In this document: one piece after another, positions 4,605-64,000 of the stretch | Position numbering within the stretch: the first letter of the stretch is position 1 | Layout: every line of letters starts with the position of its first letter | NCBI GenBank assembly: GCA_963755915.1 | Contig: CAVWLP010000002.1 | Coordinates: 896,001 to 960,000, forward strand | Origin: an uncultured Phycisphaerales bacterium | Lineage (GTDB): Bacteria > Planctomycetota > Phycisphaerae > Tepidisphaerales > Tepidisphaeraceae | Reading direction: 5' to 3' | DNA: 64,000 bases | Made by a program: the position numbers and the translations under genes | The notes under the pieces: model-generated | The model's input: the letters and a program-made list of their open reading frames with translations, nothing else | What the model was told of the DNA's origin: nothing | Database searches by the model: none

Positions 4605-5737
4605 ATGAAAATTGTTGCGCGGATTCTCGTCATAATCGTGCTCATCATCGTGGGGGGACGTTTCGCGCTAAATCTTCTATTTTTCGGGCGGTTGACGGCG
4701 CCGGGGATGAGTGACTTCGCGACAATTGCGAAGCAGAATCAATACATCGTCCAAGCGATTTGCGATTTCCGGGCGGACCATGGAATGCTGCCACAGGCTA
4801 TGGGCGATCTTGTTCCCAACTATCTCTCCAGGATGCCAGGGGGCATGGTGTTTTTCGACGGCGACTCGCTCGATATCCCTGCGGCGCACCGCACACGGGT
4901 GTTTATTATTCATTCCGAGCTGGACAGGAGGGCTGGTTCGTCGGAGGCGATTTTGGCAACGGCCCATTGCCTCTGCCGAAAGTCGCCTCGACGCATCCAT
5001 CACCCGTCGGCGACGACCTGGCAAAAACACGTGTTGCCGAGTACGACCGGCGCATTGCAGCTGACCCAAAGTCCCATCGAAATTACGTGCAGAAATTGGA
5101 CTACTTGTACTCGGTGGGCAAGACGGACGAACTTCTGGCGGCATGTAAGCTTGCATCGCAACGATTTCCGCAATGGTGGCGACCTAAGATGGTGGAGGCA
5201 GTATTGGCGGATTCTAAGTCGCGACCGCAGGCCGAGGCGAGCTTTCGCGCTTGGGCCGGAGCAAATCCCGGTTTCATCCACTGGTGGTATCTATGTCGAT
5301 ACTACGGTGATATCGGGCGCGACCACGAAGCGGTGGCGGCGTTGGAAAATGCCGTGAAATATCCGCTTCAGAACATCGACGATGACGAGGATTGGGTTCC
5401 GGCAGCGTTCGCATTCGATGCGGCGGCCTATGCCTACAATCAAAAGCGATTTCCGCTGGTTTTGGAAATCGCGCGCGTCTGGGCGTCGCCCGTAGGGATT
5501 TATAATTATTTCGATAACGATATTTACGCGTTTCGTGCGGCGGCGGAATTATCTTTGGGTAGGTTCGCAGACGCGAAAGCTGATGCGGACAAGGCGGTGC
5601 AGGCGAATGCGCAACAGGCGATGTGGGCGGGACATTTGCCTGACCTGCAGGCAGCTGCAAATCGACAAGATCAGGGGTTCGTTTACGATCCAGGCACCCA
5701 ATGCGGAGATTGGACGCTGTTCCAACCGCCACAATAG
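4605..5737 (+). CDS. membrane-anchored TPR-like protein (frameshift near 4890)
   Basis: GAGGAGG RBS and hydrophobic N-terminus MKIVARILVII in one frame; helical TPR-like repeats in the 4760..5737 frame. Confidence 0.65.
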
Positions 5738-5853
5738 TTTCTGGATCGCGATTTTTTATTGGACTTGTTCTAAAGCGGGTCGTGCGTTTTCAGAGAAAGG
5801 AGACTGGGCGTACAATTAGGCTTGCCGCGATTGCGCGGTGATGTGACGAGCGC

Positions 5854-8800
5854 ATGGTTTTCACGACCCAGTGTCCACAATGCGGGAAGATTTTGTGGTT
5901 TGCCAGCAATTTGACTGGGAAGCTGACGATCTGCCCTGCGTGTGGAGCAGTGATGAAGCTGACCCCCCCGCCGGAGGCGGCTGGCCCGGCGGAGGCGGCG
6001 CCGGAGGGGACGATTCCGCTGATGCCTGAAGCGGCGCAGGCGGCGCCACCGCTGCCGCCAGCGGACGAGCAGCCGCCGCCGATGGGATCGGCGGATGGTG
6101 AGGTCAACCAGGAGACGGGAACGCCGATCTTGGGGCAGGAGCCGGTCGCGGAGCCGATTCAGGAGCAGATTCCGGCGGCCGTGGAAGAGGCATCGCTGGC
6201 GCACCAGGCGGCGCTGGCGGCGGCGGGGGAAGTACACGTCGAGGTGAATGAAGGGGAGATGGTTGAATTCGGTGCCCAGGGCGAGATCAACGCCCAGATG
6301 GCGCCGCCTCAGCCGTCGATGGCGCCGCCGGAGTGGTCGCCCGCCCCGCTGTCGGATTATGGGGCCGCGCAACCGCCGGCGAACCAGGAGATGGTTTGGA
6401 TTCCATCGTCGGCGTCGCGGATCGATTCGCTGATGAGGGGCTCGCCGGCGCGGTCGATCGAGGATGAAGAGAGCCGGCGGCGGACGATTATCTGGGCGCT
6501 AGGAGCGACGGGGGTTGTGGGATTGATCATCGGGCTTTTGTGGCTGCTGCGCGGACAGGCGCCGGTGGTGACGTGGGAGCAGCAGAATCGCGACGCGATC
6601 CTGACGCTGAAGGATGAGGCGGAGCAGCTTGCCGTCGACGGCGACAACCAGCGGGCGTATGAGAAATACCAGGAGCTGGAGCGGATGGTTTCGGGGCAGA
6701 CGATCACCGACCCGTATTTGCAGCAGGAATTGGCGCGAAGCTGGGTGCGGAAGGATTCGCTGTATGACCTGCTGACGGCGGCGAAGCGAGCCGCAGGCTG
6801 AGAAAGAAGCGGCGGCGACAATGCCATCTCCTGGGCCATCGCTTGGGCCATCGCCGGGTGCGTCGGCATCGGCGCATCCGCCGACCCCCCCGCCGGGGCA
6901 GGTGAGCCCCGCGTCAGAGCCCAGCGAGAGCCAGAATTTTTTGTTGCTTCCCCCGCTACCGTTGCCGGTGACGCCGCCTCCGGCGCAGGCGGCGCCAAAG
7001 CCGCGGATAGCGGTGAACAAGCATCCGGCGGTGAAGCCGGATCCCGTGCCGCAGACGGGCTTGACGGACGCGCAGGTGGGGGATTCGATCCAGAAGGGGG
7101 TGGATTTTCTGTTGGGAAAATTCAGCGGGCCGGAAATCGCCGGGCAATACGAGCATTATGAGGGGCTCGACACGCTGGCGGTCTATGCCCTCATGCAGGC
7201 GGGGCTGGCCACGCACGACAAACGGCTTGACATCCACAACCCGTTCATGGTTGACGCCATCGACGCGATGAAGAAGTTTCCGATGGTGACGGATTATGTG
7301 ACCTACGCCCGGTCCCTTCGTGCGACGGCGCTGGCGCTTTACGATAGGCCGCAGGATCATGCGGCCATCCGCGAAGATGTCGACTGGCTGATCCAGTCGC
7401 AGGAGGGAGGGGCGTTCACGTACAACAACGAATTCCCGCGCGGCGGAGGTTTTTCATTCTGGGACAATTCGAATTCGCAGTATGGCTTGCTCGGGGTGTG
7501 GTCGGGCGCGGAGGTGGGGATACAGATTCCGATGGATTTCTGGCGCGACGTGCGCGAGCACTGGAATAAATACCAGTTGCCGGACGGCGAGTGGTGCTAT
7601 CGCGAAGACCAGACCGATCCGAGCCGGTCGATGACGCTGGCGGGGATCGCCTCGCTGCTGGTGGCGCAGGATTATCTGGAATCGGCGGATTACGCGGAGC
7701 AGGTGGGACGGGCGCCCTATTCGCCGGCGCTGGCGAAGGCGCTGGGGTGGCTGGCGAGCGAAGACAACAGCGTGATCGCCCTGCCGCACACGGCGGATTT
7801 CTATACCTATTATTCGCTGTACGGGCTGGAGCGGACGGGGCTGGCTTCGGGCTACAAATATTACGGTGCGCACGACTGGTATCGCGAGCGGGCGGCGGAC
7901 ATCATCGCGGCGCAAAAGGACGACGGCTCGTGGGGAAACCTCGGCGACGCGTTCGACACGGTGGTGGACACAGCATTCTCGATCCTCTTCCTGCGCGCGG
8001 CCGGCACCCGGTGCTGATGAACAAGCTGAATTACGACGGCGACTGGGCCAACCGCCCGAGGGATGTCGCCAACCTGGCGCGCTTCGCCAGCGCGGAGCTG
8101 GAGCGGCCGCTGAACTGGCAGATCGTGCCGCTGAACCAGGCGTGGACGGACAGCCCGATTCTTTATCTCTCCGGCGACAAGCCGCCGAAGCTGAGCGACC
8201 AGGACAAGTGGAATATCAAGCAGTACATACTCAACGGCGGCATGCTGCTTACGCAGGCGGACGCCGGGAGCGAGGAATTTTCGGCGTTCGTCAGACAACT
8301 GGGCAGGGAGCTTTTTCCGCAATATCAGTGGCAGGATTTGCCGGACGATTCGGTGGTTTTTTCGGTTTCCTATCACATCTCGGATCATCCGAAGATCGAG
8401 GCGATCAGCAACGGCTCGCGGATTTTGATGATGCACTGGCCGGAGGATGTTTCGAAGTATTGGCAGCTTCGGCAGGACCGGATTCACCGCCCGGCGTTTG
8501 AGCTGGGGGTAAACCTGGCGCTGTACGCGGCCGGCAAGAGCGATTTGAAGAACCGCGTGGAGTCGGAGGAAATCGAGATGCCGCCGGACGAGCCGCTGGC
8601 GTCGATGAAGATCGCGCGGGTGAAATATCGAGGCAACTGGGACCCGGAGCCAAACGCGTGGGATCGCGGGCGCAGATGGCTGCGGCAGCAGACGAGCCTG
8701 GATATCGATCCGGAGGCGACGGAGGCTGGAGATCTGAGCGCCAGCAAAGCGCCGCTGGCGGATCTCGTCGGCACGGGGAAATTGGAGCTGACCGACAAGC

Positions 8801-9216
8801 AGATCGCGTCGATGAAGAAATATGTGAAGGGCGGGGGGATTTTGCTGGTCGAGCCTTGCGGCCAGCCGGATGCGTTTTTGCAGAGCTTTCACGACGACGT
8901 GCTGCTGCGGATGTTTCCGGATGCGAATGCCGAGCCGGTGAGCGATTCGAGCCCATTGATGACCGCCAGCGGCAATGGGATGAGTGATGTCTCCAACCCC
9001 GACGTGCGGCAGTTTGTGAGATCGTACACCGACATCACCGACTGGCGGCCGATGATGGCCAAACAAGGCCAGGGGCGGATTTTGATCTTGCCGGTGGATA
9101 TGACCAGCGGACTTTTGGGAGCGGATGCTTGGGGGATCGCGGGGTATGAGCCGGAGTATGCGTTGCAGCTAATGAAGAATATTGTGCTTTGGAGTTGGGA
9201 TGGGGGAGGGGATTAG
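5854..9216 (+). CDS. large protein: zinc ribbon, TM helix, prenyltransferase/squalene-cyclase-like repeats and DUF4159 domains (frameshifts near 6800 and 7995)
   Basis: CPQC..CPAC; WDNSNSQYGLLG; QKDDGSW; LFL[ARG]RHPVLMNKL joins across frames; KYRGNWDPEP. Confidence 0.75.
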
Positions 9217-9282
9217 AATCGCGGGTTGGAATCGGAAGCTGCCGACGCAATACTTGTGATAGAATGGAAAAGAGAGAATAAG

Positions 9283-9575
9283 ATGAAATTAACTCAGGAA
9301 ATGTTGCGACAAAAACGCGATGGGATTCTGAGTATCGCCCGCCGCTACGGCGCCCACGATGTACGGATATTTGGCTCGGTGGCGCGAGGCGATAACAGCG
9401 ACCAATCGGACCTCGACCTGATTGTTCGTTTTGACGACGGCCGAACATTGCTTGACCAGGGCGGTTTGCTGATGGAACTGCGCGAATTTCTGGGGATGAG
9501 AGTCGATGTTGTTGACGAAGGCGCGTAAGCGGAAGATTCGAAAAAATTGTGCGCAAAGAGGCAGTCCCCCTATGA
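9283..9575 (+). CDS. MNT (minimal nucleotidyltransferase) antitoxin; frameshift near 9525
   Basis: [15 protein letters not shown] matches GSX10DXD; typical tail VRKEAVPL-stop in the shifted frame, overlapping the next ATG. Confidence 0.85.
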
Positions 9576-9934
9576 CGACCCAGAGGGGCAATCGACTTCG
9601 TCTTCAGGATATTCTCGATGCCGTCAACGAGATTCAACGATACCTCCCCACAGAGCGGGCGGGATTTGACGCTAACCCCCTGCTTCAATCCCACATCTTT
9701 CGTCATGTAATGATCGTAGGTGAGGCGACATTCCGGCTATCGAAAGACCTGAAACAGAGTCATCCGCAAATTCCATGGGCAAAAATCGAGGGAATGCGAC
9801 ACATTCTGGTGCATGATTATTTTAAGGTCAATTGGGCGCGTGTGTACGACACCGCACGCCTTGATGTGCCTATACTCAAGACTCAGATCGAGCAAATCCT
9901 CGCGTCATTGCCCCTAGACCCCTCTGTGCCATAA
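9572..9934 (+). CDS. HEPN (DUF86/HepT-like) RNase toxin
   Basis: PQIPW..IEGMRHILVHDY matches RX4HXY. Confidence 0.9.
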   Translation: MTTQRGNRLRLQDILDAVNEIQRYLPTERAGFDANPLLQSHIFRHVMIVGEATFRLSKDLKQSHPQIPWAKIEGMRHILVHDYFKVNWARVYDTARLDVPILKTQIEQILASLPLDPSVP

Positions 9935-14155: not shown

Positions 14156-14208
14156 CGAGGGGAATTGTAGATGCGGAATGCGGAATGCCAAATGCCGAAC
14201 CGCAGCCG

Positions 14209-22467: not shown

Positions 22468-22555
22468 TGGGGAGATTGTCTGCGGTTTTTGGGGGTTTGT
22501 CATGGGGCGGGGGAGCGCTCCCCTTCTGGTCGCGGCCAAACTAAAATGTAGGGGA

Positions 22556-23225
22556 ATGTCGGATGCATGGATTTTGGCGTGCTTCGTGCCAGCGGCCTAT
22601 TTGATCGGTTCGGTCCCCTTCGGCCTGCTCGTCGGCAAGGCCAAAGGAATCGATCCCCGCAAGGCAGGCAGCGGCAATATTGGCGCAACCAACGTCGGCA
22701 GACTCCTCGGCGGAAAATATTTCTGGCTCGTCTTCAGCCTCGACATGCTCAAAGGCGCACTCCCCGCTTTGGCAGCAGGAACAGTAATTGGCTATCGCAT
22801 CACTGATTGGGTGACCTGCCTCCTGTGGATGGCCGTCGCCGCCGCCGCGGTGCTGGGGCATATGTGCAGCCTCTTCCTGAAATTCAAAGGCGGCAAGGGC
22901 GTCGCCACCAGCGCGGGCATGATGATCGGCATCTTCCCCTTTTACACCCTGGCCCTGATCCCCGGCGCGATCGTCTTTGTGATCGCCTTCCTTTTGACCA
23001 AATACATCAGCGTAGGCTCGATCTCGGCGGCGTTTGCGTTTGCCGTTGGGTATATCATCATCGGATTGATCGAGCACTGGCCAATCACCGGCGCCCAGCT
23101 TCCCCTGCTCTGTTTTGCCCTGGCGCTGCCGGCACTGATCATCTATAAGCACCGCGGCAACATCGCCCGCCTGCGCCGGAACGGAGCCGCGATTTGCGGC
23201 AAAGGCATCATGCGAATCAAAGTGA
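22556..23225 (+). CDS. plsY: glycerol-3-phosphate acyltransferase; frameshift near 23175
   Basis: YLIGSVPFG, GSGNIGATN, FKGGKGVAT, HRGNIARL; GTEPRF tail in the shifted frame. Confidence 0.9.
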
Positions 23226-23407
23226 ACGGACAGGATTTTGAGGCTGCCGAGGGGGCGGATATTCATGCGCTGCTGAAGGCGCATAACCTGACGGCGGACA
23301 AGGTGGCCGTGGAGGTTAATCGGCGGCTGGTGAGGGGGGATAAGTATGATACGAAATTGAAGGGCGGGGATGAGGTGGAGATTGTGACGTTTGTGGGAGG
23401 GGGATAA
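23210..23407 (+). CDS. thiS: sulfur carrier protein ThiS
   Basis: MRIKVNG..VAVEVN..EIVTFVGGG-stop. Confidence 0.92.
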   Translation: MRIKVNGQDFEAAEGADIHALLKAHNLTADKVAVEVNRRLVRGDKYDTKLKGGDEVEIVTFVGGG

Positions 23408-23447
23408 ACGGCAAAAGCCAAATGCCGAATCTTGCTAAATTGGTCGA

Positions 23448-24164
23448 TCAGATTTTCGATTCAGCAAGGCTTGGCTCGCCTACGACAAATTCCGGATCGA
23501 GCAGAGTCAAGTCACGTTGAAATCTGTTCTTAAGGGATCTTTGAAATTCTCGACATCTTTCAACGTCATTTCGATCGAAAAGAGATTTTCCTCGATTCTT
23601 GGCGATTGTCTCAACAGACCTCTGGTCGAGCAGCTCCAATGCGGCGTTGAGCACACGGTCAATTTTGGTCACGCGGTCTCGCACGGTCTTAGACGGCATC
23701 CCTGGTGCCACTCCCCAGAACTGCCCCGCTTCTCGGAAATACTTTGGCTTGGATGGGTCGGACAGCCATGCTTTAAAAACAGGATGCTCCAATATCCCCG
23801 ATAGAAGCGATTCAAGTTCGCGGTCAGCCTTCTCGCGAGTGACTCCATCGCCCGGTTTAAGCTGCGAAGCCTCGTGAAGTCCTGCGGCGGCGAGCCGATA
23901 AATCATTGGCCTAACCCGCTCTATCAGGCCCTGCCCAACGAGGCCGATAGAACCACGCCGATTGAGTTCCTTATTAATCTTTTCGGCGTCCGGAAACTCG
24001 TTTTCGAATTTTCGCAGGCCCCATGCCGCTTTGTCTTGGCGCCAAGCTTCCACGAGCAGATCTTCCGCGGAAAAGGTTTTTCCCAGGTCGCCTCCCGTTA
24101 GGCGTAAAGCCGCGAGAAGAGCCTGATCACGTAAACCTAAGCCCTTGACATCAACGTCTGGCAT
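23448..24164 (-). CDS. hypothetical protein with possible winged-helix N-terminus (island gene 3)
   Basis: ATG at 24164 just downstream of the previous stop; GLVGQGLIERVRPMIYRL resembles a wHTH wing; lower GC by eye. Confidence 0.7.
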   Translation of the reverse strand: MPDVDVKGLGLRDQALLAALRLTGGDLGKTFSAEDLLVEAWRQDKAAWGLRKFENEFPDAEKINKELNRRGSIGLVGQGLIERVRPMIYRLAAAGLHEASQLKPGDGVTREKADRELESLLSGILEHPVFKAWLSDPSKPKYFREAGQFWGVAPGMPSKTVRDRVTKIDRVLNAALELLDQRSVETIAKNRGKSLFDRNDVERCREFQRSLKNRFQRDLTLLDPEFVVGEPSLAESKI

Positions 24165-24187
24165 ATCATTACCTAGCGTACGAACTT

Positions 24188-26534
24188 CTACGTTAACTCC
24201 TGTCCACTCGTGATGTAGGACTGAAGCTTTTCCCACATGGGCTGCATGAGAGACACCTGAAAGTTTTCGAGTGTGCGTTTATGGTTCGCCCAATATTCTA
24301 GCTTCTCATTCTCGCCCTTTCTGGTGAATTCTTCCATCATGTGCACCTGAGCTACCATCTCGATGAGCTTTTGAACGTGAAATGAGCGCCAACGAAGTAA
24401 ATCTTCATGGCGCGACTTGAAAAAATAAGAAGCTTCTGGGCTTCCCAAGTTCAACCACCAAATATTGGCCAACTCGTCACAAACCTCTTGCCAGAGTGTT
24501 GGCTGATCCGGGTTTGACGGACGAATTTTCCCAGTATCGGGATCGACGTCCTTGTCGGTGATGAGCAGTCGTGGAAATCCTCCGCCTCGCTGCCTCTCTT
24601 TCGGGTTAGGGATCACCGCGACTTCTGCTCGAATACGAGCCCAAATTCCGCCATTAGCCTCTTCCCCCGCGCCTGCGCTAATGGACGTGCGCCCGATCCG
24701 ATTCCCCGTGACTTGCCCCCACGGGGAAACTCTTACTATCAGCTGATCGGGGGCATCGTGTGCCCAGTTCAATAGAACATTCGTCGCGCGGTTGCCCTCA
24801 TCGTTCGTCACCTGAGCCGTAATCGGTTTGCGATTGCCAAGTGGGATTTCGAGCGTTCTTGGTGTTAGAAGTACGTGATCAACCAACCACACTTCGATTT
24901 CAACGCGAGGAGATTCGATCTTCTGGCCCTTCACGCGGCACCAGATATGGCATCCGCCTTTGCGCGACGCCGTCATTCGGTCACCCGAGTTGAACTCGAC
25001 GACGTGCCGATCGCTGGAGAACCACTCCAGGTCAACGTGGGGGACAGTCTTGCCGTCTCGGTCGCAGACACGGCTGCCCAGGATGCCGGACATCCCCGAC
25101 GTAACGCCGGCGCCGATTCTAAGTGGCTGCGCAGCGTCCCAACTAATAAACTCGATCGACTCAGGCGTTTCTCCGTAATCCCGCGCCGGGGGTGTAGGCC
25201 GGAAGATAGGCCCCTTGCCATCACCAGAGCCTGTCCCGTCGCCGCCCGGCCCCGCGCTTTCAAGAAATTGGTTCTTAAACCGGTCCAACGCGGCGTTCTC
25301 TCGCTGAACCTCATCCAACGTGTGATCGTCGAGTTCTTGGCGACGGTGTTCATTGATCTCTTTGGCCAGTTCTTTGATACAGTCGCAAATGAAGCGGTCT
25401 ACCGCCGAGACGAGAGGTCCGTCGTTAGGCGCACGCGCCCAAGAGCGACGTAGTCCGGCTCAAACGCGCCGAGCTCAACAACGCCGTAAATGAAATCAGA
25501 ACCGGGTATACCAGACGCGAAATCGGAAACTGGCTTTGAACCAATGATGTGATTATGGTTAGCTTTGTAAGTGACCTTCCATCGCGGCTTCAAATTCTTA
25601 TGAGCTGTGCGCATGTTCTGGCGTGAAGTGTAAAGCACGAGCCGCCCGCGACTCCGAGCGCCATTAAGCGTCGTGGACTGATCCACGCCGGCCTCGTCCT
25701 TTAACAGTTCGGGGATCTCATACGCCGGGCGAGTTCGAAGCCGGGATACGGCTCGATAGGCTCAAGCTGTAGTGGTTTACCTTCATTTAGAATCGTGCCA
25801 TTCCGGACAGCGAAGAGCCGAAATTGCTCAATAGCAGCCGTCGCTTGGTCATGCCGCAAGAGTTTCGTCGTGAGGTCTACTGGAATGCGGCCTTTGAAGA
25901 AATCTTTTGGATCTAGTCCTTCCACCAACGTGAAAGCTTGCCGCTTTTCTATCGCATCGGTCACCGCGTGAGGCAACTCCTCAGGCTGAATGTCGTACAC
26001 CTTTAGAGCCTCGCTCAATTCCGATCGCCACGACGCTACTGGCAAATCGCGTGCAGCGGCATCGCTCGGGATGAAGCCTGGGCAACCGCGTTCCAGCGAT
26101 TGAGGCGGTCCCTCAAAACCCTTGCAATTCAGTTTTCCGTCACGGATGCCGAGGATACGAGCGCGACCGTTGAAGAGCTTGTACATGTAGGCCTTGGCGC
26201 CGTTACCCTGGGTTTGTTCTTCCGGAAGCGAGGACCCGCGGCCAGAGGCCGTAAAATCTTGCCAAACGCTCCACCTAGTAACGTCTTCGAGCGTAGCGCC
26301 ACCAACGTCCAAAACACCCAATGCGGCCGGGCCTTCGTATTCGGCATCCTTCATTAGCAACACCGCAACGCGCAATTCTTCCGGAACGCTGGCGCGGTCG
26401 GATTGATAGGCGCGTCTTACATTTTTCAGCCATTCGGCGAGCCCCTCAGCGTGAGTGCTGATCCATCTTGTGAGTGAGCGAAGTGTCCCGAGTTCGTGAA
26501 ACTCGATGCCGTTCTCATCGCGTTCAATGCTCAT
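24188..26534 (-). CDS. GHKL (MORC/HSP90-like) ATPase with tandem Ig-like domains, about 780 aa; two frameshifts (island gene 2)
   Basis: EGLAEWLKN, LDVGG, QGNGAK motifs. The three listed ORFs join across 1-nt shifts near 25730 (YEIPELLKDEAGVDQST) and 25430 (PNDGPLVSAVDRF..LDEVQ). Confidence 0.7.
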
Positions 26535-26551
26535 AAATCCCACCTATATAA

Positions 26552-27169
26552 CTATTCCCCATTGGGCTGAGCCGGTAAACGTTCCCAGCGTGCTTGAACC
26601 TCTGCTCGCCACTCGGATGTTCCGGGAATCGAGTAGCCTTGACGCCCGTGTTGCTCCACTAGACCGCACTCGCGTAACCAGTTCAGGCAGAGATATGGCT
26701 GATAGGACGGAATTTCGCTGCCATCGCCCGTCGTCAGAGGCAAAACATCGTTCATCGAAAACTGCCTGCTTTTGCGGCTCGCTTTAACCAATGCCTCCAC
26801 CAGCGAGAATAACACTGCCTTGGGAGCCTTGTGCTCGTATTCCCCCTCTGATTTGGAATAGCCAACCTTAATCAGCCAGTCTTCTCGCCCATAAAATTTA
26901 GGGTACTCAGATCTTCGACCCCTCTTTCGCTTGAATGTTGCCGCGTCGGCTGCGCTAGGTTGGCCCTGCCCAGCCGCAACGCCCACCCCAATCTCTTGTG
27001 CGTGCCCTCCGATCGCCCTAGACCATTTGTCCGACAGAGCTCCAATCGCTCGCGCGATGTCCAAGACAGTGGCGGCGCGGTCATAGTTTCTCGACGAGGC
27101 ATATTCTCCGGACAGCTTCGCGAGCGATTCCTCAGCACCTACTAAGATTTCGTGAACCTTCTGATCCAT
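26552..27169 (-). CDS. hypothetical protein (island gene 1), possible C-terminal winged helix
   Basis: 205 aa ORF preceded by AT-rich promoter-like DNA; LNWLRECGLVEQHGRQGY. Confidence 0.7.
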   Translation of the reverse strand: MDQKVHEILVGAEESLAKLSGEYASSRNYDRAATVLDIARAIGALSDKWSRAIGGHAQEIGVGVAAGQGQPSAADAATFKRKRGRRSEYPKFYGREDWLIKVGYSKSEGEYEHKAPKAVLFSLVEALVKASRKSRQFSMNDVLPLTTGDGSEIPSYQPYLCLNWLRECGLVEQHGRQGYSIPGTSEWRAEVQARWERLPAQPNGE

Positions 27170-27413
27170 ACAGGGAAGAATAATACAACGAAAATACTAA
27201 TTGTCAAATAAAAAATACAGATAAAATACAGGCAAAATGCTCTTTGGGGCCGTCGCGGCCTCGAAACGAACAGTTTGGCCAGCGGCCATCTCTTCAACTG
27301 TTCGCCAATTTTGGCCCATGCCCCTATTTTGTTCGAGAGTGTCACTTTTTGTAACCTTTTGTCACCTCGTTTCGGCATTTGGCCTTCGGCCTTCGCCGTT
27401 CTAAAATCCCCCC

Positions 27414-28232
27414 ATGCACCCCCTCCGCATCGGCAAATTCGAACTCTCCAGCCGCCTGTTCGTCGGAACGGGCAAATACGCTTCGTACGAGATCATGCAG
27501 GAAGCCCTGGCCGCCAGCGGCTGCCAGGTGGTGACCGTCGCTGTGCGGCGGGAACGGCTGATCGATAAACAGGGGCGGTTGATCCTGGATTTCCTGGACC
27601 TGAGCAAATATGTCATTCTGCCGAACACGGCGGGTTGCTTCAGCGCGGAGGATGCGATCAGGGTGGCGCTGCTGGGGAGGGAACTGCTCGAGAAGCAAAA
27701 GAATCCGGGGGCGAACTGGGTGAAGCTAGAAGTGCTGGGGGATAAGAAGACGCTGTTGCCGGATCCGATGGGATCGCTCGAGGCGACCAAGGAGCTGGTA
27801 AAGGAAGGGTTCACGGTGTTGTGCTACAGCAGCGACGATCCGATCGCGGCCCGGCGGATCAAAGAAGCCGGTGCGGCGAGCGTAATGCCGGCGGGAAGCC
27901 CGATCGGGTCGGGGCAGGGCGTTTTGAATCCGCTGAATATTTCGCTTTGCCTGGAGACGCTGAAGGAGGGGGATAAGAATTATCCGGTGATTGTGGATGC
28001 GGGAGTGGGGACCGCGAGCGATGTGGCCGTGGCGATGGAGTTGGGAGCCGACGGTGTGCTGCTGAATACGGGGGTGGCGCACGCCAAGGATCCGGTGAAG
28101 ATGGCCGGCGCCATGAAGCTGGCGATCGAAGCGGGGAGATTGGCGTTTGAATCGGGGCGAATCGCCAAAAAGCGGTACGCGACGGCGAGCAGCCCGTTTG
28201 ATGGAGTGATCAGCTATATTCCAGGCGAGTGA
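27414..28232 (+). CDS. thiG: thiazole synthase
   Basis: [40 protein letters not shown]. Confidence 0.96.
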
Positions 28233-29131: not shown

Positions 29132-29848
29132 ATGCTCGTGCTGACCCGCCAGCGAGATCAGATCATCATGATTGGGGATGACGTGGAGATTACCGTGGTT
29201 GATATCCGCGGCGACAAAGTGCGGCTGGGGATCACCGCGCCGATGAGTGTGAAGGTTTATCGGCGTGAGGTTTACGATCAGATTCGCGAGGAGAACCGGG
29301 CCGCGGCGCAGATGGTTCCGGCGGATCTGGTGAACATTCCAGCCACGCCCCCCCCGCCGGCGCCGGTGGCGATCGAGCCGCAGCGGGCGACGTTTCCGCG
29401 ACTGGCGGCCGAGAGCCGCGACCCGTTCATGCAGGCGGCGATTGATGAAGCCTTACTGGGCCTCAGCGAGGGAGGATTGCCGATCGGGTCGGTGCTGGCG
29501 CGCGGAAATCAGATTATCGGGCGCGGACACAATCGCCGCGTGCAGCGCGGGGATCCGATGGCCCATGCGGAGATCGATTGCCTGACGAATGCCGGGCGGC
29601 AGAAGACATATGCGGACACGGTGCTCTATTCGACGCTGATGCCCTGTTTTCTGTGCAGTGGAGCAGTCGTGCAGTTTGGCGTGCCGAGGGTGGTCGTGGG
29701 AGAGAGCGTAAATTTTGGAGGCGGGCCGGAGCTGATGCGCTCGAAGGGAATTGAAGTCGTGGATTTGCACGATCGGGATTGCATTGAAATGATGGGGCAA
29801 TTCATCCGGCAGCATCCGGAGCTTTGGAATGAGGATATCGGGAAGTAA
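29132..29848 (+). CDS. csrA: CsrA RNA-binding domain fused to a zinc-dependent cytosine/nucleoside deaminase
   Basis: MLVLTRQRDQIIMIGDDVEITVVDIRGDKVRLGITAP..VYRREVY, Pro-rich linker, then HAE..PCFLC and WNEDIG. Confidence 0.85.
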   Translation: MLVLTRQRDQIIMIGDDVEITVVDIRGDKVRLGITAPMSVKVYRREVYDQIREENRAAAQMVPADLVNIPATPPPPAPVAIEPQRATFPRLAAESRDPFMQAAIDEALLGLSEGGLPIGSVLARGNQIIGRGHNRRVQRGDPMAHAEIDCLTNAGRQKTYADTVLYSTLMPCFLCSGAVVQFGVPRVVVGESVNFGGGPELMRSKGIEVVDLHDRDCIEMMGQFIRQHPELWNEDIGK

Positions 29849-35765: not shown

Positions 35766-37495
35766 ATGGCCAATCAACTCAAGATGGCGGAAGTACAAGC
35801 AATTTTGGCACTTGCGCAGCGGCTGGTCCAATCGGAACATCGCCCGCCAACTCGGCGTTCACCGGGAGACCGTTGGACGCCACATCCGGTTGTCGGGCGG
35901 CGATCCTGCGGCGCCCGGATCGGATTCAAAACCGGCCAGCGCGCCCCTCGGCTCGACGGTGCTCGCCGCAGGCGGCTCGACGGTGCTCGCCGCAGGCGGC
36001 TCGACGGTGCTCGCCGCAGGCGGCTCGACGGTGCTCGCCGCAGGCGGCTCGACGGTGCTCGCCGCAGGCGGCTCGGAGAGCGCGCCCACCGGGTTATCCG
36101 GCGCGCCCATCGGGTCGGTCAGTACGGCATCGCCCTGGCGTGAGGTCATTGTTCAGAAGTTGGAAGCCGGGCTGACGGCCCAGCGGATTTATCAAGACAT
36201 CTCCAGCGATCACGGCTATGCCGGCAGCTATTACAGCGTGCGCCGGTTCATCAAGAAGCTCTCGGCTGCCGCGCCGGCGCCCTTTCGCCGGATGGAATGC
36301 GAGCCGGGAGCCGAGGCGCAGGTGGACTTCGGCCGGGGTGCGCCCTGGTCGGTCCTGACGGCAAACGCAAAGCAACCTGGGTCTTCCGCATTGTGCTGAG
36401 CCACAGCCGCAAGGGGTACGCCGAGGCGGTGGAGCGGCAGACGACCGATGATTTTCTGCGTTGTCTGGAAAATGCCTTTACGCACTTCGGCGGGATGCCG
36501 TCAGCGCTGGTGATCGACAATCTTCGCGCGGCGGTGACGCGGGCGGACTGGTTCGAGGCGGAGTTGTGTCCCAAGGTCCGGTCGTTCGCCGAACATTATG
36601 GAATCGCCATTCTGCCCACCAAGCCGTACACGCCGCGGCACAAGGGGAAGATCGAGCGGGGCATCGGCTATGTGAAGAGCAATGCTCTCAAAGGCCGGCA
36701 ATTCGCCTCGCTCTCGGATCAGAACGCGCATCTGCTGACGTGGGAGAAGAGCGTGGCCGACACGCGCATCCACGGCACGACGCGGCGGCAGGTGAAGGAA
36801 GTCTTCGAGCAGGTAGAGAAGCCGGCACTGTTGGCTCTGCCGCCGGTGCGATTCGATCTTTTCACCGAGGCGTTGCGCAGTGTTCACCGCGACGGGCACG
36901 TGGAGATCAAGGGGGCGTACTATTCGGTCCCGCCGGAGTTTTTGGGCCAGCGGGTCTGGGCGCGGTGGGACGGCGCACGGTCCGGCTGTTCGATCAGAAG
37001 ATGCGTGCGATCGCTCTGCACGCGCAGCGTCCGCCGGGCAGGTTCTCGACGCAAGACGCCCATATCCTGCCGGAGAAGATCAGCGGCATCGAGCGTGGAA
37101 CGACCTGGCTTCTCCAGCGGATCGAATGCATCGGGCCGCACGCCACGCAGTGGGCGCAGTCAATGCTTCAGCATCGCGGCATCGAAGGCGTGCGCGTGTT
37201 GATGGGGCTGCTGTCGCTGGCCAATCAGCAGCCGCGACCGGCCGTGGAACGAGCCTGCGAGATTGCTCTGGGGCATGGCGCGTATCACCTGCGCTCCCTG
37301 CGGCAGCTCATCGAACACCAAAACGGTGCGCCGGTTCAACAACACTTCGAGTTTGTTCAGGAACATCCAATCATCCGCGGACTGGCCGATTACGGACAGT
37401 TCGTACGCGACGCAATCACCCAAGCGGAGGCTTTGCCTGCCGCACAACCTTTACAGGCCTGCCCTGAGCAGAGCCGAAGGGAGTCCACCCCATGA
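35766..37495 (+). CDS. istA: IS21 transposase (several frameshifts)
   Basis: HTH IARQLGVHRETV; EAQVDFG; VIDNLRA; KGKIERGIGYVK; RIHGTT; YYSVP. Confidence 0.88.
35950..36075 (+). repeat. five perfect tandem 24-nt units plus 6 nt inside istA (GSTVLAAG x5)
   Basis: GGCTCGACGGTGCTCGCCGCAGGC repeated without spacers. Confidence 0.95.
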
Positions 37496-38382
37496 GACCT
37501 TCGTTGATGCAGACGCTCAAGCAACTTCGGCTTTCAGGTCTGGCGAGCAGCCTTGAAGTTCGCCTGAGCGAGGCGGCCGGCAATCGGCTCGACCACAGTG
37601 AGTTTTTGGAACTGATCCTTCAGGATGAACTGAACGTCCGATCCAGCCGGCAGATCGGCCGGCGCGTCAAGGCGGCGATGTTCCGCGACACCAAAAACCT
37701 CGACGAGTTCGACTTCTCCTTCAACACCTCCATCAAACGCAAACAGATTCACGATCTGGCCGCCGGCCAGTTCATTCGTGACAAACGTGACGTGCTCTTG
37801 CTGGGTCCGCCCGGCGTGGGCAAATCGTTTTTGGCCCAGGCCATCGGACACCAGGCGATCAAGAGCGGCTTGGTGGTCCTGTACCGATCCATCTTCGACC
37901 TGGCCCGCGACTTTTTAGGCGACGAGGATCTGGGAGCCCAGGACAAGACGCTGGCCCGGTATCTCAAGCCTGATCTGCTTATCATCGACGACATGGGAAT
38001 GAAGCAGCTTCCGCGGCGCAGCGGCGAATGCCTGCTGGAGATCGTCATGCGCCGGCACGAGAACCGCTCGACGATGATGACCAGCAACCGTCCACTGGAG
38101 GACTGGGCCAAGCTGATCGGCGACGTGCCGGCGGCCACGGCCATTCTGGATCGGTTCCTGCAGCACGCCACGATCATCAACATCACCGGCAAGAGCTACC
38201 GCCTTCGGCATGGGGGCCATTCGACTTCGCTCACGGCAGGCCAATCCGGGACACCGGAAAAGACAAATCCAAAAGGACGGCGGAGTACCGCCGGCGATGA
38301 AGGGTGCTCCCCCCCGGAAGACACCGTGACAGAGCCGCCGTTGTCTTCTGATGTGGGGGTATCCGCCGGCCAGACGGCGTGA
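37492..38382 (+). CDS. istB: IS21 helper ATPase
   Basis: GPPGVGKS, LLIIDDMG, TSNRP, AILDRFL, GKSYRL. Confidence 0.93.
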   Translation: MRPSLMQTLKQLRLSGLASSLEVRLSEAAGNRLDHSEFLELILQDELNVRSSRQIGRRVKAAMFRDTKNLDEFDFSFNTSIKRKQIHDLAAGQFIRDKRDVLLLGPPGVGKSFLAQAIGHQAIKSGLVVLYRSIFDLARDFLGDEDLGAQDKTLARYLKPDLLIIDDMGMKQLPRRSGECLLEIVMRRHENRSTMMTSNRPLEDWAKLIGDVPAATAILDRFLQHATIINITGKSYRLRHGGHSTSLTAGQSGTPEKTNPKGRRSTAGDEGCSPPEDTVTEPPLSSDVGVSAGQTA

Positions 38383-57823: not shown

Positions 57824-59674
57824 TTGACCCCCACTACTTGCCGCTTTCGGCAGGCGCAGCATAGCGCAAGGATCCTTTCTATAAAATTTAGAAACTTCAA
57901 GGCCTTCCCTGATTTTCTACTGTCTTTGCGTCACGCGACAATTCTGGTCGGCCCCAATAACTGCGGAAAATCTACCGTTCTTGGCGCATGCCGCATATTG
58001 GCAACTGGTCTCCGAAGAGCGGGTGCCAAATCTAGCGAAACCGTTCAGGGACCAGGGGGCTCGCAGCAGGGCTATTACATCAGCGGCGATGATCACCCGG
58101 TTTCGCTGGAGAATGTTCATACGAATTATTCGGCTGAAAAATCCACCGTAACTTTTCGTTTGAGCACGGGCAACGACTTGGCGCTGTTCTTTTCAGGAGA
58201 TGGTGGGGCCTCACTAGTAATGCCAGGTCGAGAAATCGCGAGAACGGCACCTAAGCAATTTCGTACGCTGTATCCACTTACCATTGGGCAAGTACCGGTC
58301 CTCGGACCGGTGGAACACGACGAGCAGCTGCTATTGAAGGAAACGATTGATCGGTCACTTGCTACACATAGGGCGTCACGGCACTTCCGAAACTACTGGT
58401 ACCACTATCCCGAGCGCTTTCACGAATTTCAGGAGGCGATCGAACACACATGGCCGGGAATGAAAATCAAAGCCCCCGAACAAAAATCCACCCCAGATGG
58501 CTCATTCCTTTATATGTTCTGCACAGAAAACCGAATCGATCGGGAGCTCTATTGGGTTGGTTTCGGATTTCAGGTGTGGTGCCAATTGCTAACTCACATT
58601 CTCAGGTCGAGAACGGATAGTATTCTCATTGCGGACGAGCCTGAGATCTATCTTCACCCGGACATGCAGCGCCAGCTATTGAGCATCTTTCGTAACGCGG
58701 GTCCGGACCTTCTATTAGCGACCCATTCGTCCGAGCTGGTTGGCGAAGCGGAAGCCACTGAAATCGTTCTTGTTGACAAGACCTCGTCAAAAGGCAGGCG
58801 ACTCACCAAACTTGATGCCATTCAAGATGCCCTCGAATATCTTGGCTCGGGTCATAACATAGCATTGACGCAGATAGCGAGGACCCGTCACATCGTCTTT
58901 GTCGAGGGCGATGATTTTAAGTTTCTACGCGGCTGGGCGGAAAGGTTGAATCTGAAGGAACTCGGCACTGGCCTTGGCATTGTACCTATTTCAGTGGGCG
59001 GTTTTGGTCAATGGGAGCGCGTAAACGCGTTAGGCTGGGGGTTTCGCGCTGCTTTGAACCAACCGATGCAACTCGCCGCAATTTTTGATCGGGATTACTA
59101 TTGCGACGAAGAAATCCAACTCATCGTTGCTAAGCTTAAGCAGAATGTTTCTTGCGTTCACATCCTCCAGCGCAAGGAGATCGAGAATTACCTGCTCCTG
59201 CCAAGCGTATTAGACAGGTGCGTTGCGAAACTTTTGCAGGACCGAAAGCAGCGCGGCCACGAACAGTCGAAGGCGGTCGTACCAATGCTTAAACTCTTGG
59301 GGGGAATCTGCGAAAAATTTAAGAACGAAGTATCGGGCAACTTAGTGGGCAAAGCTGTAGAACATTTCAATCGGCAGAGAAGTGGAGACTGCGCGGCAAC
59401 GATATCGACCCGTGTGTTGGCCGAGTTTGAGCAGAAGTGGAAGAAAATCGATTGGAAACTTGAGCTTGTCCCAGGTAAGCAGGCGCTTAGTGAGGTCAAT
59501 AAGAGCCTTCAAGCGGATTACGGAATCACGCTTACGCCTGGCGCAATTATCCGGGAAACGCGCCAAGACGAGATTCCTGCCGATTTAATCACATTCCTGC
59601 GTAAACTTGAAGCGTTTAGAAAATCTGAACCTCCCAGATTGCGTCATTCGCAACCAGTGGCAGCCGAAGATTAG
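57824..59674 (+). CDS. OLD-like ATP-dependent nuclease (ABC-type ATPase plus TOPRIM-like domain)
   Basis: GPNNCGKS, IADEPEIYLHP, ATHSS, FVEGDD, FDRD, KEIENYL; lower GC by eye. Confidence 0.82.
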   Translation: MTPTTCRFRQAQHSARILSIKFRNFKAFPDFLLSLRHATILVGPNNCGKSTVLGACRILATGLRRAGAKSSETVQGPGGSQQGYYISGDDHPVSLENVHTNYSAEKSTVTFRLSTGNDLALFFSGDGGASLVMPGREIARTAPKQFRTLYPLTIGQVPVLGPVEHDEQLLLKETIDRSLATHRASRHFRNYWYHYPERFHEFQEAIEHTWPGMKIKAPEQKSTPDGSFLYMFCTENRIDRELYWVGFGFQVWCQLLTHILRSRTDSILIADEPEIYLHPDMQRQLLSIFRNAGPDLLLATHSSELVGEAEATEIVLVDKTSSKGRRLTKLDAIQDALEYLGSGHNIALTQIARTRHIVFVEGDDFKFLRGWAERLNLKELGTGLGIVPISVGGFGQWERVNALGWGFRAALNQPMQLAAIFDRDYYCDEEIQLIVAKLKQNVSCVHILQRKEIENYLLLPSVLDRCVAKLLQDRKQRGHEQSKAVVPMLKLLGGICEKFKNEVSGNLVGKAVEHFNRQRSGDCAATISTRVLAEFEQKWKKIDWKLELVPGKQALSEVNKSLQADYGITLTPGAIIRETRQDEIPADLITFLRKLEAFRKSEPPRLRHSQPVAAED

Positions 59675-61477: not shown

Positions 61478-62502
61478 AGCATTTCCCAAATTAAGATAGC
61501 GGAAGGCGATATCTGCAGTGCTCAAAGAATCCCTCGGCGTCGCCGGCCGTGATTGCATCCATCGCCTTGAACACCGCCTCCACCAACGCTTCGAATGTTC
61601 TGGGCTCGGCGCCGCGGATCAACTGCTTCACCTTGCTCCACATCATCTCGATCGGATTCCAATCCGGAGAATAAGGCGGCAGCAGCCGTAATTCACAGCC
61701 CGCCGCTTCGATCATCGCCCGCACCGCCGGCCGCTTGTGAGCCGGCAGATTGTCCATCACCACGATGTCGCCGGGCCGCAGTCCTGGAAGCAGCGCCTCA
61801 CGCACCCACACGACGAAAACGTCGCCGTCCATCGGTCCTTTCACCACCGCGCCGGCGATGGCGCCGCCGACTCGCACCGCGGCGATCATGGTGGTCGTGC
61901 TCCAGTGTCCGGCCGGGACCCTGCACACCAATCGTTCACCCCGGGCGCAGCGGCCACGCAGGCGGGTGAAGTTGGTTTTGGCCCCGGATTCATCCAGAAA
62001 AACCAGGCGATTGGGATCGACCTGCTTTACGTTTTGTTCCCATTGCGCACGCGCCTCGGCGACGTCGGGCCGCTCCTGCTCGGCGGCGTGGAGGGACTTT
62101 TTTTAAAGGACAAATCCAGCTTCCCGACCCAACGGTCCACCGTGGAGAGCGCCACGTCCAGTTGCAATTGCTCCTTGATTTCAGCGAGCGTGGCGTCGGG
62201 ATGATCCGCCACGAATTGCCCGAGCTGCGTTTTGATCTGGTCGGTGAGTTTTCCTTTGCGGCCGCGAAGGTGGAGCAGCGGGTCCGCGGTTCCGCGCTCG
62301 CGATGATTCTGCCGCACGCGGCGAACGGCTGATTCGCACCGGCCGAAGATGGCGGCGATTTCCTTGGTGCCCTTGCCGGCTTGATAGGCCGAGATGATCC
62401 ATCGACGGGTGAGGGTGATCTGGGAAGCCATGAAAACCTCCTTGTTGTTTCGGAGGTTAGCACAGGTCGATGCCTGGCGCTAGTTTAGAAAAGGAAATGC
62501 TC
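61477..62502 (-). mobile_element. IS630-family insertion sequence
   Basis: Inverted ends GAGCATTTCC/GGAAATGCTC flanked by duplicated TA; encodes HTH and DDE ORFs. Confidence 0.92.
61491..62431 (-). CDS. IS630 transposase, split ORFs with an A7 slippery site at 62098..62104
   Basis: HPDATLAE HTH region; VMDNLPAH, LPPYSPDWNPIE. Confidence 0.88.
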
Positions 62503-62619
62503 TAGTTTGGAGTGAGTGAGTCGGGGGTTGCCATCCGAATTGTTTTTCTTGCCGGAGACATTGGTACAAAAGGTAACCTCGACAGGCTGGCGGGGGCTTT
62601 TGGATAAAGGCCTTGCGCG

Positions 62620-64000
62620 TTATGCGTGGGCGGGCATGTTGCCGAACGTTGGCGGGGCTTTTACATCCACAGTAACCCTCGGCGTCTGCCGCAATTCCGA
62701 TTCGGCTTGGACGCGAACTTCGTCCATCTTGGGATATCTCACTTCGCGGTATCCGGTGACGCGCTCGGGGCAGCGGAGGATTCGCACCGCTTTCTCGTAC
62801 GCTTCGTCGCTGGCCAGGCTCACGCGATCCAGCAGGCTGAAATACCAGTCGCGGAAGGCGACTTCGCGTTTGTGCCAGCCGGGGAGCTTGCGCCACCATT
62901 TCATGTGGCGTGACGATGCGTAGCTGCCAGTCGGTGGTCGTCAGGCGCAGGCGGATGCGCCATTTGCCGATGTTGAATTCGGGGCTGGTGTGGTGGCGAT
63001 ATTTGAGACGGTCGCCGTTGGGGACGTCGACGTTGTACTTGACGATGTCGCGCTGCTTTTTCTCGTAGCGGGTCAGGAGATAAGAGACGTACGGCTCATC
63101 CTTGATGAGCATCACCTTGGCCAGGTTCCAGATGACGGCCTGCGTGGCGGCGAAATTCGCGTTCGGCGCGGTCGCGGCGATAGATCTTCCGGACCGCTTC
63201 CACGATATCGCTTGGCGAAGGCGAGGTTCTGGTATTGCATCAGGTCGTAGATGCGCAGGGCCAGATCATACTTGCCGGCTTCGGGCAGATCGGGCATCTG
63301 CTTGATCGCGGGGTTGACCGAGCTGCTCCAGTTGTTCGGCGAGGATCTGCCCGCGGAAACGCGTCTTGCGGAGGATGCGGACCTTGTTGGTGAGAAGCTG
63401 CTCCCAGGTTTCCGGCTCGGGCTTGCGCGGCAAGGCGCGCGGCTCCAGGGCCAGCTTGCGGCCGATGTTGAACGCCTTGAGGTTCCGGCGATGCTCGCGG
63501 CGGATGGTGTCCTTGATCGCCCAGGCGATGCTGCGGGCCGATACCGGAATCAGCCCAAGCTGATACGCCACGCCCAGCATCATGATGTTGGCGAACTGCT
63601 TGCTTCCCAGCCGCTGCTCGCAGATTTCGGAAAGGTTGGCGGCGAAGCTGCGGTCGGGGTTGCACTGCTCGAAGATCTGCTCGCGAAGCGCTTCGGGATC
63701 GAAATCCTCGCTTGCCCAGGAGCGTGTTGACCGTCGGCTGCTTGTGCGTGATTCAGCACGGCGGCCGTGTGCTGGGGCGAGGCGACGCGGAACTGCTCGC
63801 GCGGATCGATGGCGCGCGCGGCTTCGAGAATGTCGATGCCCAGCAGCAGATCGGCTTTGCCGTAGGGGATGGAGCCGGTGATGGGGAAAGAATCGGCGGA
63901 CGATTTCTCAGTGCTTGAGGGTTGACGAAGGTGATCTGCGAAAAGACGCCGCCGTTGCGGATGGCCAGGCCTTTTTTGTCCTGGAAGACGACGTGGTATC
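62620..64000 (-). CDS. C-terminal part of an indolepyruvate:ferredoxin oxidoreductase-family protein (multiple frameshifts; 5' end outside the window)
   Basis: Fragments NIMMLGVAYQLGLIPVS, NLKAFNIGR, KDEPYV, PERVTGYREVR. Confidence 0.7.

Follow-up and report, generated by a model that had tools for sequence, protein, structure and literature searches.

A candidate conflict or defence module of a GHKL-type ATPase and a predicted winged-helix protein, probably inactive, between thiS and thiG of a Phycisphaerales bacterium

The island between thiS and thiG

The stretch of DNA analysed here (the window, 64,000 nucleotides of contig CAVWLP010000002.1 from an uncultured Phycisphaerales bacterium) contains a ThiS gene ending at 23407 (PF02597, E 3e-12) and a ThiG gene starting at 27414 (PF05690, E 1.5e-98). 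The gap between them is occupied by three minus-strand genes, called A, B, and C below, which may belong to an unnamed conflict or defence module with B and C as its core. Gene A (27169–26552) encodes 205 aa. Gene B extends from the ATG at 26534 to the stop codon at 24188–24190 and is spread over three frames, with open frames at 26543/26534–25704, 25761–25402, and 25459–24191. The open reading frame (ORF) of gene C covers 24236–23448, and its likely start is M25 at 24164, which yields 238 aa; the same start is found in relatives and in the database record P0151 (238 aa, 100% identical). Relatives detected at E values of 7e-97 (B), 6e-114 (C), and 1.5e-68 (A) indicated that these are real genes and not chance ORFs. 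The layout and the Pfam-identified flanks agree with the first-pass annotation of this locus, made from the sequence alone, which had described three minus-strand genes splitting thiS from thiG.

The lower GC content noted by eye in that annotation was confirmed by calculation: the GC content is 0.539 for 23430–27370 versus 0.597 for the remaining window, and the island is the lowest-GC 3.9-kb stretch within the 64 kb. The GC content at third codon positions (GC3) is 0.52–0.62 in the island versus 0.68–0.78 in thiS, plsY, and thiG. Just upstream of gene A, in an AT-rich segment, lies a sigma-70-like promoter on the minus strand (TTGACA-16-TATTAT, 27180–27207, 11 of 12 consensus positions), which is a consensus match only, as three such sites occur in the region versus 2.4 expected. 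The thiS and thiG genes are usually neighbours, as in thiCEFSGH of E. coli and thiSGF of B. subtilis, and therefore the island looks like an insertion into the pair. With its lowest GC content, the promoter-like site and the interrupted thiS–thiG pair, the island looks foreign and horizontally acquired, in line with the origin proposed for it at first reading. The Rfam scan of the window detected no family, hence no thiamine pyrophosphate (TPP) riboswitch near thiS or thiG, and no tRNA gene, hence no tRNA-type integration site, was found within the window.

A 23-nt imperfect inverted repeat with a 13-nt exact core, GCCAAATGCCGAA, flanks the island exactly on both sides. Its left arm (23407–23429) begins at the stop codon of thiS and its right arm (27371–27393) lies 21 nt before the start of thiG. 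A third exact copy of the 13-mer was observed at 14187–14199, amid similar heptamers (GCGGAAT GCGGAAT GCCAAAT GCCGAA). The repeat may be a dispersed element resembling repetitive extragenic palindromic (REP) sequences, a pair of recombinase half-sites, or an ancestral thiS–thiG hairpin split by the insertion. On the thiS side, PlsY (residues 31–224) and ThiS (residues 239–301) share one stop-free ORF at 22502–23407; ThiS may be translated from its own ATG inside this ORF, at about 23210, or the product may be a PlsY–ThiS fusion.

Domains, fold and frame breaks of gene B

Relatives of B were collected with HMMER, using the first piece of the gene as a query against 1.84 billion representative proteins (50% clustering), and 234 representatives were obtained at E≤1e-3. 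The best 150 of these provided 46 full-length sequences (700–860 aa), which were compared in alignment A1 and are numbered here according to P0002. D86, G89, G123, G125, and K127 are invariant among the 46 sequences, and E44, K47, N48, and G126 are retained in 90% or more of them. The window protein has the corresponding motifs EGLAEWLKN, LDVGG, and QGNGAK, with Ala at the G126 position, and these fall on invariant or near-invariant columns, so the GHKL-like motifs originally recognised in the translation stand. Taken together, the conserved residues match the N-box, G1 box, and G2 box of GHKL proteins, and the N-terminal part of B (25800–26534, minus strand, with EWLKN, LDVGG, and GNGAK behind the likely start ATG at 26534) is a predicted GHKL (Bergerat-fold) ATPase domain. 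Sequence-level searches did not recognise it: no HATPase_c-type Pfam match was found for the window pieces at E≤1 or for the 46 relatives at E≤0.1, and the N-terminal half of B had no match in the Pfam, NCBIfam, PADLOC, or PDB sequence searches.

The fold was examined on an AlphaFold model of the 524-aa relative P0001, which is 59% identical to the first window piece (86-row alignment; predicted local distance difference test score, pLDDT, 89.5; predicted template modelling score, pTM, 0.76). The model is alpha/beta up to about residue 245 and beta-rich at about 270–355, continues with a helix at 373–423 and a disordered stretch at 427–448 (pLDDT <50), and then a beta domain begins. A Foldseek search of PDB gave 203 matches at E≤1e-3, and all those listed are GHKL proteins. 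The best match was MORC2 (E 2.9e-9, 454 columns), followed by MORC3, MORC4, SMCHD1, and TRAP1/Hsp90/GRP94 (E 6e-8 to 1e-6 for the last three), with topoisomerase VI-B at rank 46. The TM-scores were low (0.3–0.4), as expected when domain orientations differ. Since the alignments with MORCs span 422–513 columns (444–513 for MORC2), they also cover the second, S5/transducer-type domain, whose strands occupy residues 270–353 of the model. On this model, B is predicted to be a GHL-type ATPase whose nearest solved folds are the MORCs; the GHKL fold, on which the first-pass annotation had made its reading depend, was thus found in a relative of the window protein.

Downstream of the ATPase domain, all on the minus strand, the beta-rich S5/transducer-like domain occupies 25430–25799 and contains both frame breaks discussed below. 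Its conserved basic residues include an RPRWK stretch and the near-invariant R380. The segment at 25190–25429 encodes a long, coiled helix of about 50 residues and a Gly/Pro-rich disordered linker (...GPGGDGTGSGDGKGP... in the window translation), the coiled segment and linker noticed earlier having their counterparts in the helix and the low-pLDDT stretch of the P0001 model. Two Ig-like domains of the Big_2 type follow at 24620–25130, identified by the family profile and by Pfam in relatives. The B family profile matched Big_2 chains of PDB with E values of 1e-18 to 1e-7 at profile positions 450–630, and Pfam Big_2 (PF02368) matched 21 of the 46 relatives (best E 3.8e-12). The window piece alone remained below the cutoff (E 0.016, 15.6 bits versus 22.8, residues 146–219 of the 376-aa ORF). 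The Ig-like repeats noted at first reading are real, as the family profile and the relatives show. The conserved C-terminal domain (24188–24619, with GFPxLL... and NIWWLN..., ending at the stop codon 24188–24190) comprises the last ~140 residues, in which N701 is invariant and P660 and P671 nearly so; none of the residues invariant in the 46 relatives is acidic, His, or Lys. Searches with this domain gave no Pfam or PDB match and nothing at ≥0.9 in Atlas, and beyond the Ig domains nothing was found with the B profile among PDB sequences.

The three open frames of B were joined by comparison with P0002, an intact relative of 788 aa. In a tblastn search against the window, this protein matched the three pieces colinearly (query residues 14–295, 288–382, and 383–784) with 56%, 54%, and 47% identity, and the homology placed shift 1 at about 25735–25716 and shift 2 at about 25432–25425. 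Both are single-base shifts in the same direction (−1), located at short C runs of the coding strand that are only 2–3 bases long. The pieces are otherwise free of stops and the rejoined protein has about 780 aa, the length that had been restored at first reading by two 1-nt shifts; intact relatives measure 750–850 aa. Programmed −1 frameshifting was considered and rejected, as no slippery heptamer of the X XXY YYZ type was seen by eye in either overlap window.

It is rather unlikely that the window copy is intact and functional and that the breaks arose as errors in the assembly consensus at short homopolymer runs. Such errors would account for two single-base breaks in one direction, both at C runs, in pieces that have no other stops and are still 47–56% identical to P0002, and genes A and C are undamaged. 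That the contig is one sequence of 5.0 Mb may point to a long-read assembly. Against this explanation, the homopolymer runs have only 2–3 bases and none of the 25 other Pfam-matched ORFs of the window showed a similar split (25 of 55 window ORFs have a Pfam match, and no family is split across neighbouring ORFs except one transposase fragment). In addition, B is also broken by nonsense codons, insertion, or truncation in relatives (L002, L013, L014, L023, L024, and L026, see below). It is more likely that the breaks are real, and because of these two frameshifts the local copy of the module is probably non-functional. Judged from its sequence, the window copy is most likely an inactivated remnant in which A and C are still intact.

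Partner genes, distribution and surroundings of the module

Gene C (23448–24164, minus strand, 238 aa) is the best-conserved partner. Its 98 relatives, similar to it in length, are without exception unnamed or hypothetical, and none has a Pfam domain. The mean column identity is 53% across phyla, and 34 of 35 aligned relatives are 43–76% identical to it, the remaining one 29%; such identity across phyla fits lateral spread. The AlphaFold model of C (pLDDT 89.2) consists of winged-helix-like units and helices, and C is accordingly predicted to consist of winged helices in tandem, a fold of the DNA-binding type, with no enzyme recognised. Foldseek gave no match to this model at E≤1e-3 in PDB or among the viral structures of BFVD. 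The best matches below the threshold were the N-domain of MukF (E 9.2e-3, TM-score 0.30, root-mean-square deviation 19 Å) and MukE, besides winged helices of PadR, AphA, IdeR, and MarR, and F93, and the likeness of the model to kleisins is only a lead. In Atlas, the look-alikes of C belonged to its own unnamed family only, and no fused, longer form of C was found, which is weak evidence. A complex prediction with the B protein of L001 (residues 1–770) and its own C, P0159 (residues 1–230), scored 0.01 against a mark of 0.32, in a run without controls, a value that argues neither for nor against binding.

The variable accessory gene A (26552–27169, minus strand) encodes a protein whose helical N-terminus is joined by a variable, basic linker to a conserved C-terminal domain with the motifs YPKF..., SYQxYLCLxWLR..., and QHGRQGYS. 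Its 33 relatives are all hypothetical and without precomputed Pfam domains, and A itself had no Pfam, PADLOC, NCBIfam, or PDB sequence match. With hhalign, the start of its C-terminal domain aligned weakly with the first winged helix of C (probability 10.8%, 24 columns). Possible winged-helix regions had been suggested for both proteins flanking B; the confident model supports this for C, whereas none of the tools shows such a region in A. At the place of gene A, seven loci of relatives have another gene, A′, whose product has a coiled-coil N-terminus and a HARE-HTH domain (PF05066; six of the seven match with E 1e-5 to 3e-4, one of them at the curated cutoff or better). Homology of A and A′ was rejected (hhalign probability 0.35%), and the window gene A neither matches HARE-HTH nor is homologous to the proteins carrying it. 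The sequence profiles of A, A′, and C gave nothing significant against PDB. The HARE-HTH domain is named for restriction endonucleases according to Pfam and has been linked to the reading of DNA modification, a link that would suit a role of the first gene in distinguishing self from non-self.

The genomic contexts cover 28 loci and one plasmid, and most of the relatives of B and C are metagenomic. The 28 loci, from metagenome-assembled genomes (MAGs), were fetched through the C alignment with one peptide pattern, and their B and A genes were found by profile searches of six-frame ORFs. Their labels assign the MAGs to Planctomycetota, Verrucomicrobiota, Acidobacteriota, Actinomycetota, Pseudomonadota, and Eremiobacterota. 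In 24 of the 28 loci, B is the immediate upstream neighbour of C; the four exceptions are contig ends (L022 and L025) and loci with only 3′ remnants of C (L027 and L028). Upstream of B, 19 loci had room for a further gene: A was found in four of them (L001, L004, L006, and L013), A′ in seven (L009, L011, L012, L019, L020, L021, and L023, in the last 3.3 kb away), and neither in eight. Thus, the expectation that the genes co-occur elsewhere was borne out for B and C, and the idea of a three-component system was not; from these contexts, the conserved unit appears to be the B–C pair and not the trio.

Tblastn searches with C and B against 72,556 plasmid records found a single record, NZ_CP118613.1, the conjugative plasmid pCTYH.Ch1_3 of Ensifer adhaerens, and no match was obtained in 50,697 phage records. 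Behind a 75-aa ORF, the plasmid carries genes for a B protein of 800 aa (profile E 1.9e-249) and a C protein of 229 aa (E 2e-33), which overlap by 4 nt. These proteins are only 25% (B) and 23% (C) identical to the queries, which indicates that the pairing holds across the breadth of the family. On the opposite strand beside this pair (269–4450 of L029) lie genes for a DNA methyltransferase, a 410-aa hypothetical protein, and a 583-aa AAA-family ATPase, which may form a separate restriction-like or defence operon.

B could be judged in 22 loci, being a single open gene in 14 and disrupted in eight. The lesions are an in-frame TGA at 770–772 in L002, frameshifts in L005 and L007 (at about 8393–8490 in the latter), an insertion of about 1.5 kb (~7750–9264) inside the Ig region in L013, a 5′ truncation together with a TAG in L023, a deletion remnant of B and C in L024, and a TAG in L026, while L014 retains only the 3′ part of B, beside a recombinase-like ORF. 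Some of these MAGs may be long-read assemblies, as inferred from contig names, and frameshifts in them could be errors, but the nonsense codons, the insertion, and the truncations are not explicable as indel errors. The Pirellulales MAG L013 also has an IS66 transposase gene between A and B, at 4643–6121, a clear case of module decay by insertion. The same conserved Trp codon of B (...LRPRW[KQ]...) is TAG at 8569–8571 of L023 and at 8550–8552 of L026, and C follows in both loci. The two stops look independent, because the B genes are saturated at synonymous sites and L016, the closest relative of L026, keeps TGG. The repeated change could reflect a mutational hot spot, selection for knock-out, or a switch by readthrough or gene splitting. 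Of seven point disruptions (two in the window and one each in L002, L005, L007, L023, and L026), six lie in or border the S5-like domain, at about residues 262–368 of ~775, a region chosen post hoc, and the seventh (L005) lies in the Ig region. This gives a hint of clustering in the S5-like region.

Mobility and conflict genes surround the module in a part of the loci. A large serine recombinase gene lies just downstream in five (L012, L014, L016, L017, and L026), tyrosine integrases occur in three (L017, L024, and L026), and IS66 and IS1595 elements were found near the module in L013 and L023, respectively. The neighbours include HamA with a DEAD helicase, a Hachiman-type pair, in L026, HEPN_AbiU2 in L017, an AAA_21/SMC_N ATPase with an APH/TCAD9 protein in L019, and a Uma2 nuclease in L023. 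SNF2 lies 3 kb downstream in L003, and VapBC, PIN, CcdB, Gp49, and UPF0175 genes of the toxin–antitoxin type were detected in L003, L010, L021, L022, L024, and L027. Using all-against-all clustering and Pfam, no helicase, nuclease, or methylase family was found to recur beside B–C in the 28 loci. The expected association with defence genes is suggestive in a minority of loci, and many others have housekeeping flanks; on gene content, the contexts fit a mobile, conflict-type cargo but no consistent defence island.

Further features were observed elsewhere in the window. At 9226–9934, a gene for an MNT-like nucleotidyltransferase (PF01909) overlaps one for a HepT-like RNase (PF01934), forming a toxin–antitoxin-type module with low GC3. 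A gene for a 616-aa AAA_21/AAA_15 ATPase (57824–59674, with a low GC3 of 0.54) is situated between asnB and rpoN and may be a further acquired conflict gene; the family takes its name from the AbiEii toxin and OLD-like ATPases. One ORF at 29132–29848 encodes a complete CsrA (residues 1–53) and a cytidine/deoxycytidylate-type deaminase (residues 96–227), and represents either an unusual fusion or two genes without a stop between them. An IS21-type IstB ATPase gene (37492–38382) follows an ORF of 344 aa in the 36461–38382 segment. At 61491–63115, two short ORFs lie behind a DDE_3 transposase fragment (61491–61931, profile positions 32–145 of 146) in the same orientation, and together these may be a broken IS630-type element.

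Interpretation and comparison with known systems

Considering these results, we regard the module as an unnamed, horizontally acquired, nuclease-free, paraMORC-like candidate for a conflict or defence system, which has B and C as its core and is probably inactive at the present locus. We give this reading a probability of about 0.5; that the module serves host defence specifically is at best an even bet. As in other GHL ATPases, B would dimerise through its ATP-bound N-terminal domains and form, together with the middle domain, an ATP-gated clamp or switch on DNA. C, with A or its HARE-HTH substitute, would supply DNA binding and the choice of target, while the Ig-like and C-terminal domains of B could provide surfaces for protein contacts. 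Invading DNA, such as that of phages, plasmids, or rival mobile elements, might then be restrained without a built-in nuclease, by entrapment, compaction, or recruitment of host factors. The operon is often headed by an interchangeable protein of putative DNA-binding type (A or A′), and the module travels on integrative and conjugative elements. In a bolder version, which we hold to be improbable, B–C would be a nuclease-free bacterial counterpart of MORC/SMCHD1 silencing, in which the loaded clamp compacts and silences foreign DNA without cutting and the first gene picks the target. The clustered knock-outs of B, including the Trp codon turned twice independently into TAG, would then stem either from self-silencing being costly or from a regulated on/off switch.

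Several points weigh against a conflict or defence role. In many loci the genes on either side are ordinary housekeeping ones and a defence-island context is not consistently seen, while the flanks shared by L011 and L020 and by L007, L008, and L018 indicate that the module is stably chromosomal in some clades. Big_2 domains are mostly extracellular or phage-structural and would be odd in a cytoplasmic DNA clamp. The fold evidence comes from the model of the relative P0001 and not from the broken protein of the window. No PADLOC model matches the module, and no effector (nuclease, NADase, pore, or protease) was found in it. The disruption of B in eight of 22 loci would also fit a decaying gene of a selfish element. 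All loci were fetched via C, and the frequency of C given B is sampled by the single plasmid hit only. The defence phenotype, the ATPase activity, the binding to DNA, and the contact between B and C are predictions, as are the anti-phage role and the sensing of phage proteins by the Ig-like domains that were proposed at first reading. Finally, the operons of MORC and paraMORC proteins, as far as described in the available part of the account by Iyer, Abhiman & Aravind (2008, PMC2292703), differ in their gene content, as no conserved helicase, nuclease, or methylase stands beside B.

Alternatively, the module could serve the element that carries it, in DNA compaction, partition, maintenance, exclusion, or counter-defence; for instance, the B clamp and its winged-helix adaptors (C and A or A′) might organise or protect the element's own DNA. 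The frequent adjacency to serine and tyrosine recombinases and IS elements, the copy on a conjugative plasmid, and the absence of an effector domain agree with this explanation, as do the kleisin MukF and MukE as the best, though non-significant, structural matches of C, and the absence of the module from the 50,697 phage records. We consider it unlikely, however, as no recombinase or other element gene was seen in the examined stretch at the window, L003, L005, L007, L008, L011, or L020, only one of 72,556 plasmid records has the module, and some clades hold it at a fixed chromosomal site. The hypothesis that B acts on proteins and not on DNA, as a GHKL protein of the chaperone (Hsp90-like) or signalling (kinase-like) kind, with its winged-helix partners as transcriptional regulators of the operon, would explain the strong fold matches to TRAP1, Hsp90, and GRP94 (E 6e-8 to 1e-6), the presence in B of Ig-like domains, which are protein-binding modules, and the position of gene A at the head of the operon, right after the promoter-like site. 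The top fold matches are nevertheless the DNA-acting MORCs and SMCHD1, C is far more conserved than a usual local repressor and strictly coupled to B, the substitute of A carries HARE-HTH, and the patchy spread across phyla is typical of conflict genes, all of which make such a role very unlikely.

GHL/MORC-type ATPases connect bacterial conflict systems with eukaryotic genome defence, but only a small number from bacteria have been investigated. In those described, nucleases, helicases, or methylases are either carried or recruited. B represents a sequence-orphan GHL family with an unusual architecture, having Ig-like domains and no visible signal peptide, and the module differs from the described ones also in its obligate, highly conserved winged-helix partner and in its lack of a recognisable effector. 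If the module defends its host, its mode of action is likely to be new, and if it serves mobile elements, it would be a new kind of element-borne DNA-handling device. The intact copy on the plasmid of a cultured and non-pathogenic Ensifer strain makes the question accessible to bench testing. For the genome of the window, the island is a modest and probably dead piece of cargo that split the thiS–thiG pair.

Searches for a described system that includes the module gave no hit. PADLOC-DB 2.0.0, a library which we take to include a model of the antiphage system Tiamat, contained no match for A, B, or C (window pieces and seven intact relatives) or for A′; GajB (E 0.002–0.03 over 35–40 residues) and BrxC, LmuB, and AbiEi (E>0.006) appeared below the threshold at chance level. 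No Pfam or NCBIfam model names the module, and a full-text search of the literature, with supplementary lists of candidate systems outside its scope, found no GHKL/MORC protein with Ig-like domains and a winged-helix partner. No nuclease, methylase, or other effector was detectable in the module by Pfam, PADLOC, or NCBIfam, in agreement with the first-pass annotation, which had recognised no nuclease, methylase, or named system.

Among known systems, the SMC–kleisin–KITE complexes (MukBEF and Wadjet/JetABCD) likewise combine an ATP-gated DNA clamp with small winged-helix partners, and the working principle is thus similar. The resemblance is limited to that principle, since B is not an SMC protein, the module has neither an SMC gene nor a Toprim nuclease (JetD), and the matches of C to MukF and MukE are non-significant. 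The GHKL-Shedu protein VcSduA (PMC12137116) is similar in pairing a GHKL domain at its N-terminus with a clamp-like middle domain that presumably gates an activity further downstream, GHL ATPases being presented there as ATP-dependent dimers with such a middle domain. It differs by its DUF4263 PD-(D/E)xK nuclease and its HATPase_c match in Pfam, neither of which B has. Tiamat, as outlined in the accessible part of its report (bioRxiv 10.64898/2026.09.30.754977), shares with B the GHL ATPase, a rare and patchy occurrence, and swappable C-terminal modules, and it is antiphage. It is a single protein composed of a GHL ATPase and a PD-(D/E)xK DNase, whereas the B module is multi-gene and nuclease-free, and B lacks the DUF3684/TPR core (by Pfam) and a PADLOC match.

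In the study of MORC and paraMORC proteins (Iyer, Abhiman & Aravind, 2008, PMC2292703), MORCs are defined by the GHKL motifs, an S5 domain, and a GhXhhpXXRhl motif, and paraMORC1–5 are related GHKL plus S5 families with C-terminal extensions of their own. Their operons carry superfamily-II helicases, nucleases, and methylases, and the prokaryotic members are predicted to act in restriction-like systems (PMC2292703). B does not have the GhXhhpXXRhl signature as given there: the most similar sequence, G-x-L-x-L-x-T-S, shows R, K, or A where the motif has its Arg and polar residues at hydrophobic positions (P0001, P0002, P0005, P0008, and P0015, inspected by eye). Hence the designation as MORC type, proposed at first reading, holds at the level of the fold, where MORCs are the nearest solved structures, and not at the level of MORC-specific sequence features. 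The tandem winged-helix partner and the two Big_2 domains also set B apart from the MORC and paraMORC families as portrayed in that text, and with paraMORC1–5 the comparison is by description and not by family models. Like those families in the same account, B combines a GHKL domain, in which the ATP-binding motifs are intact, with an S5-type domain, carries a family-specific C-terminal extension, shows patchy lateral spread, and is inferred to act on DNA in conflict systems. Measured against the definition as available, B is paraMORC-like and not a member of MORC proper.

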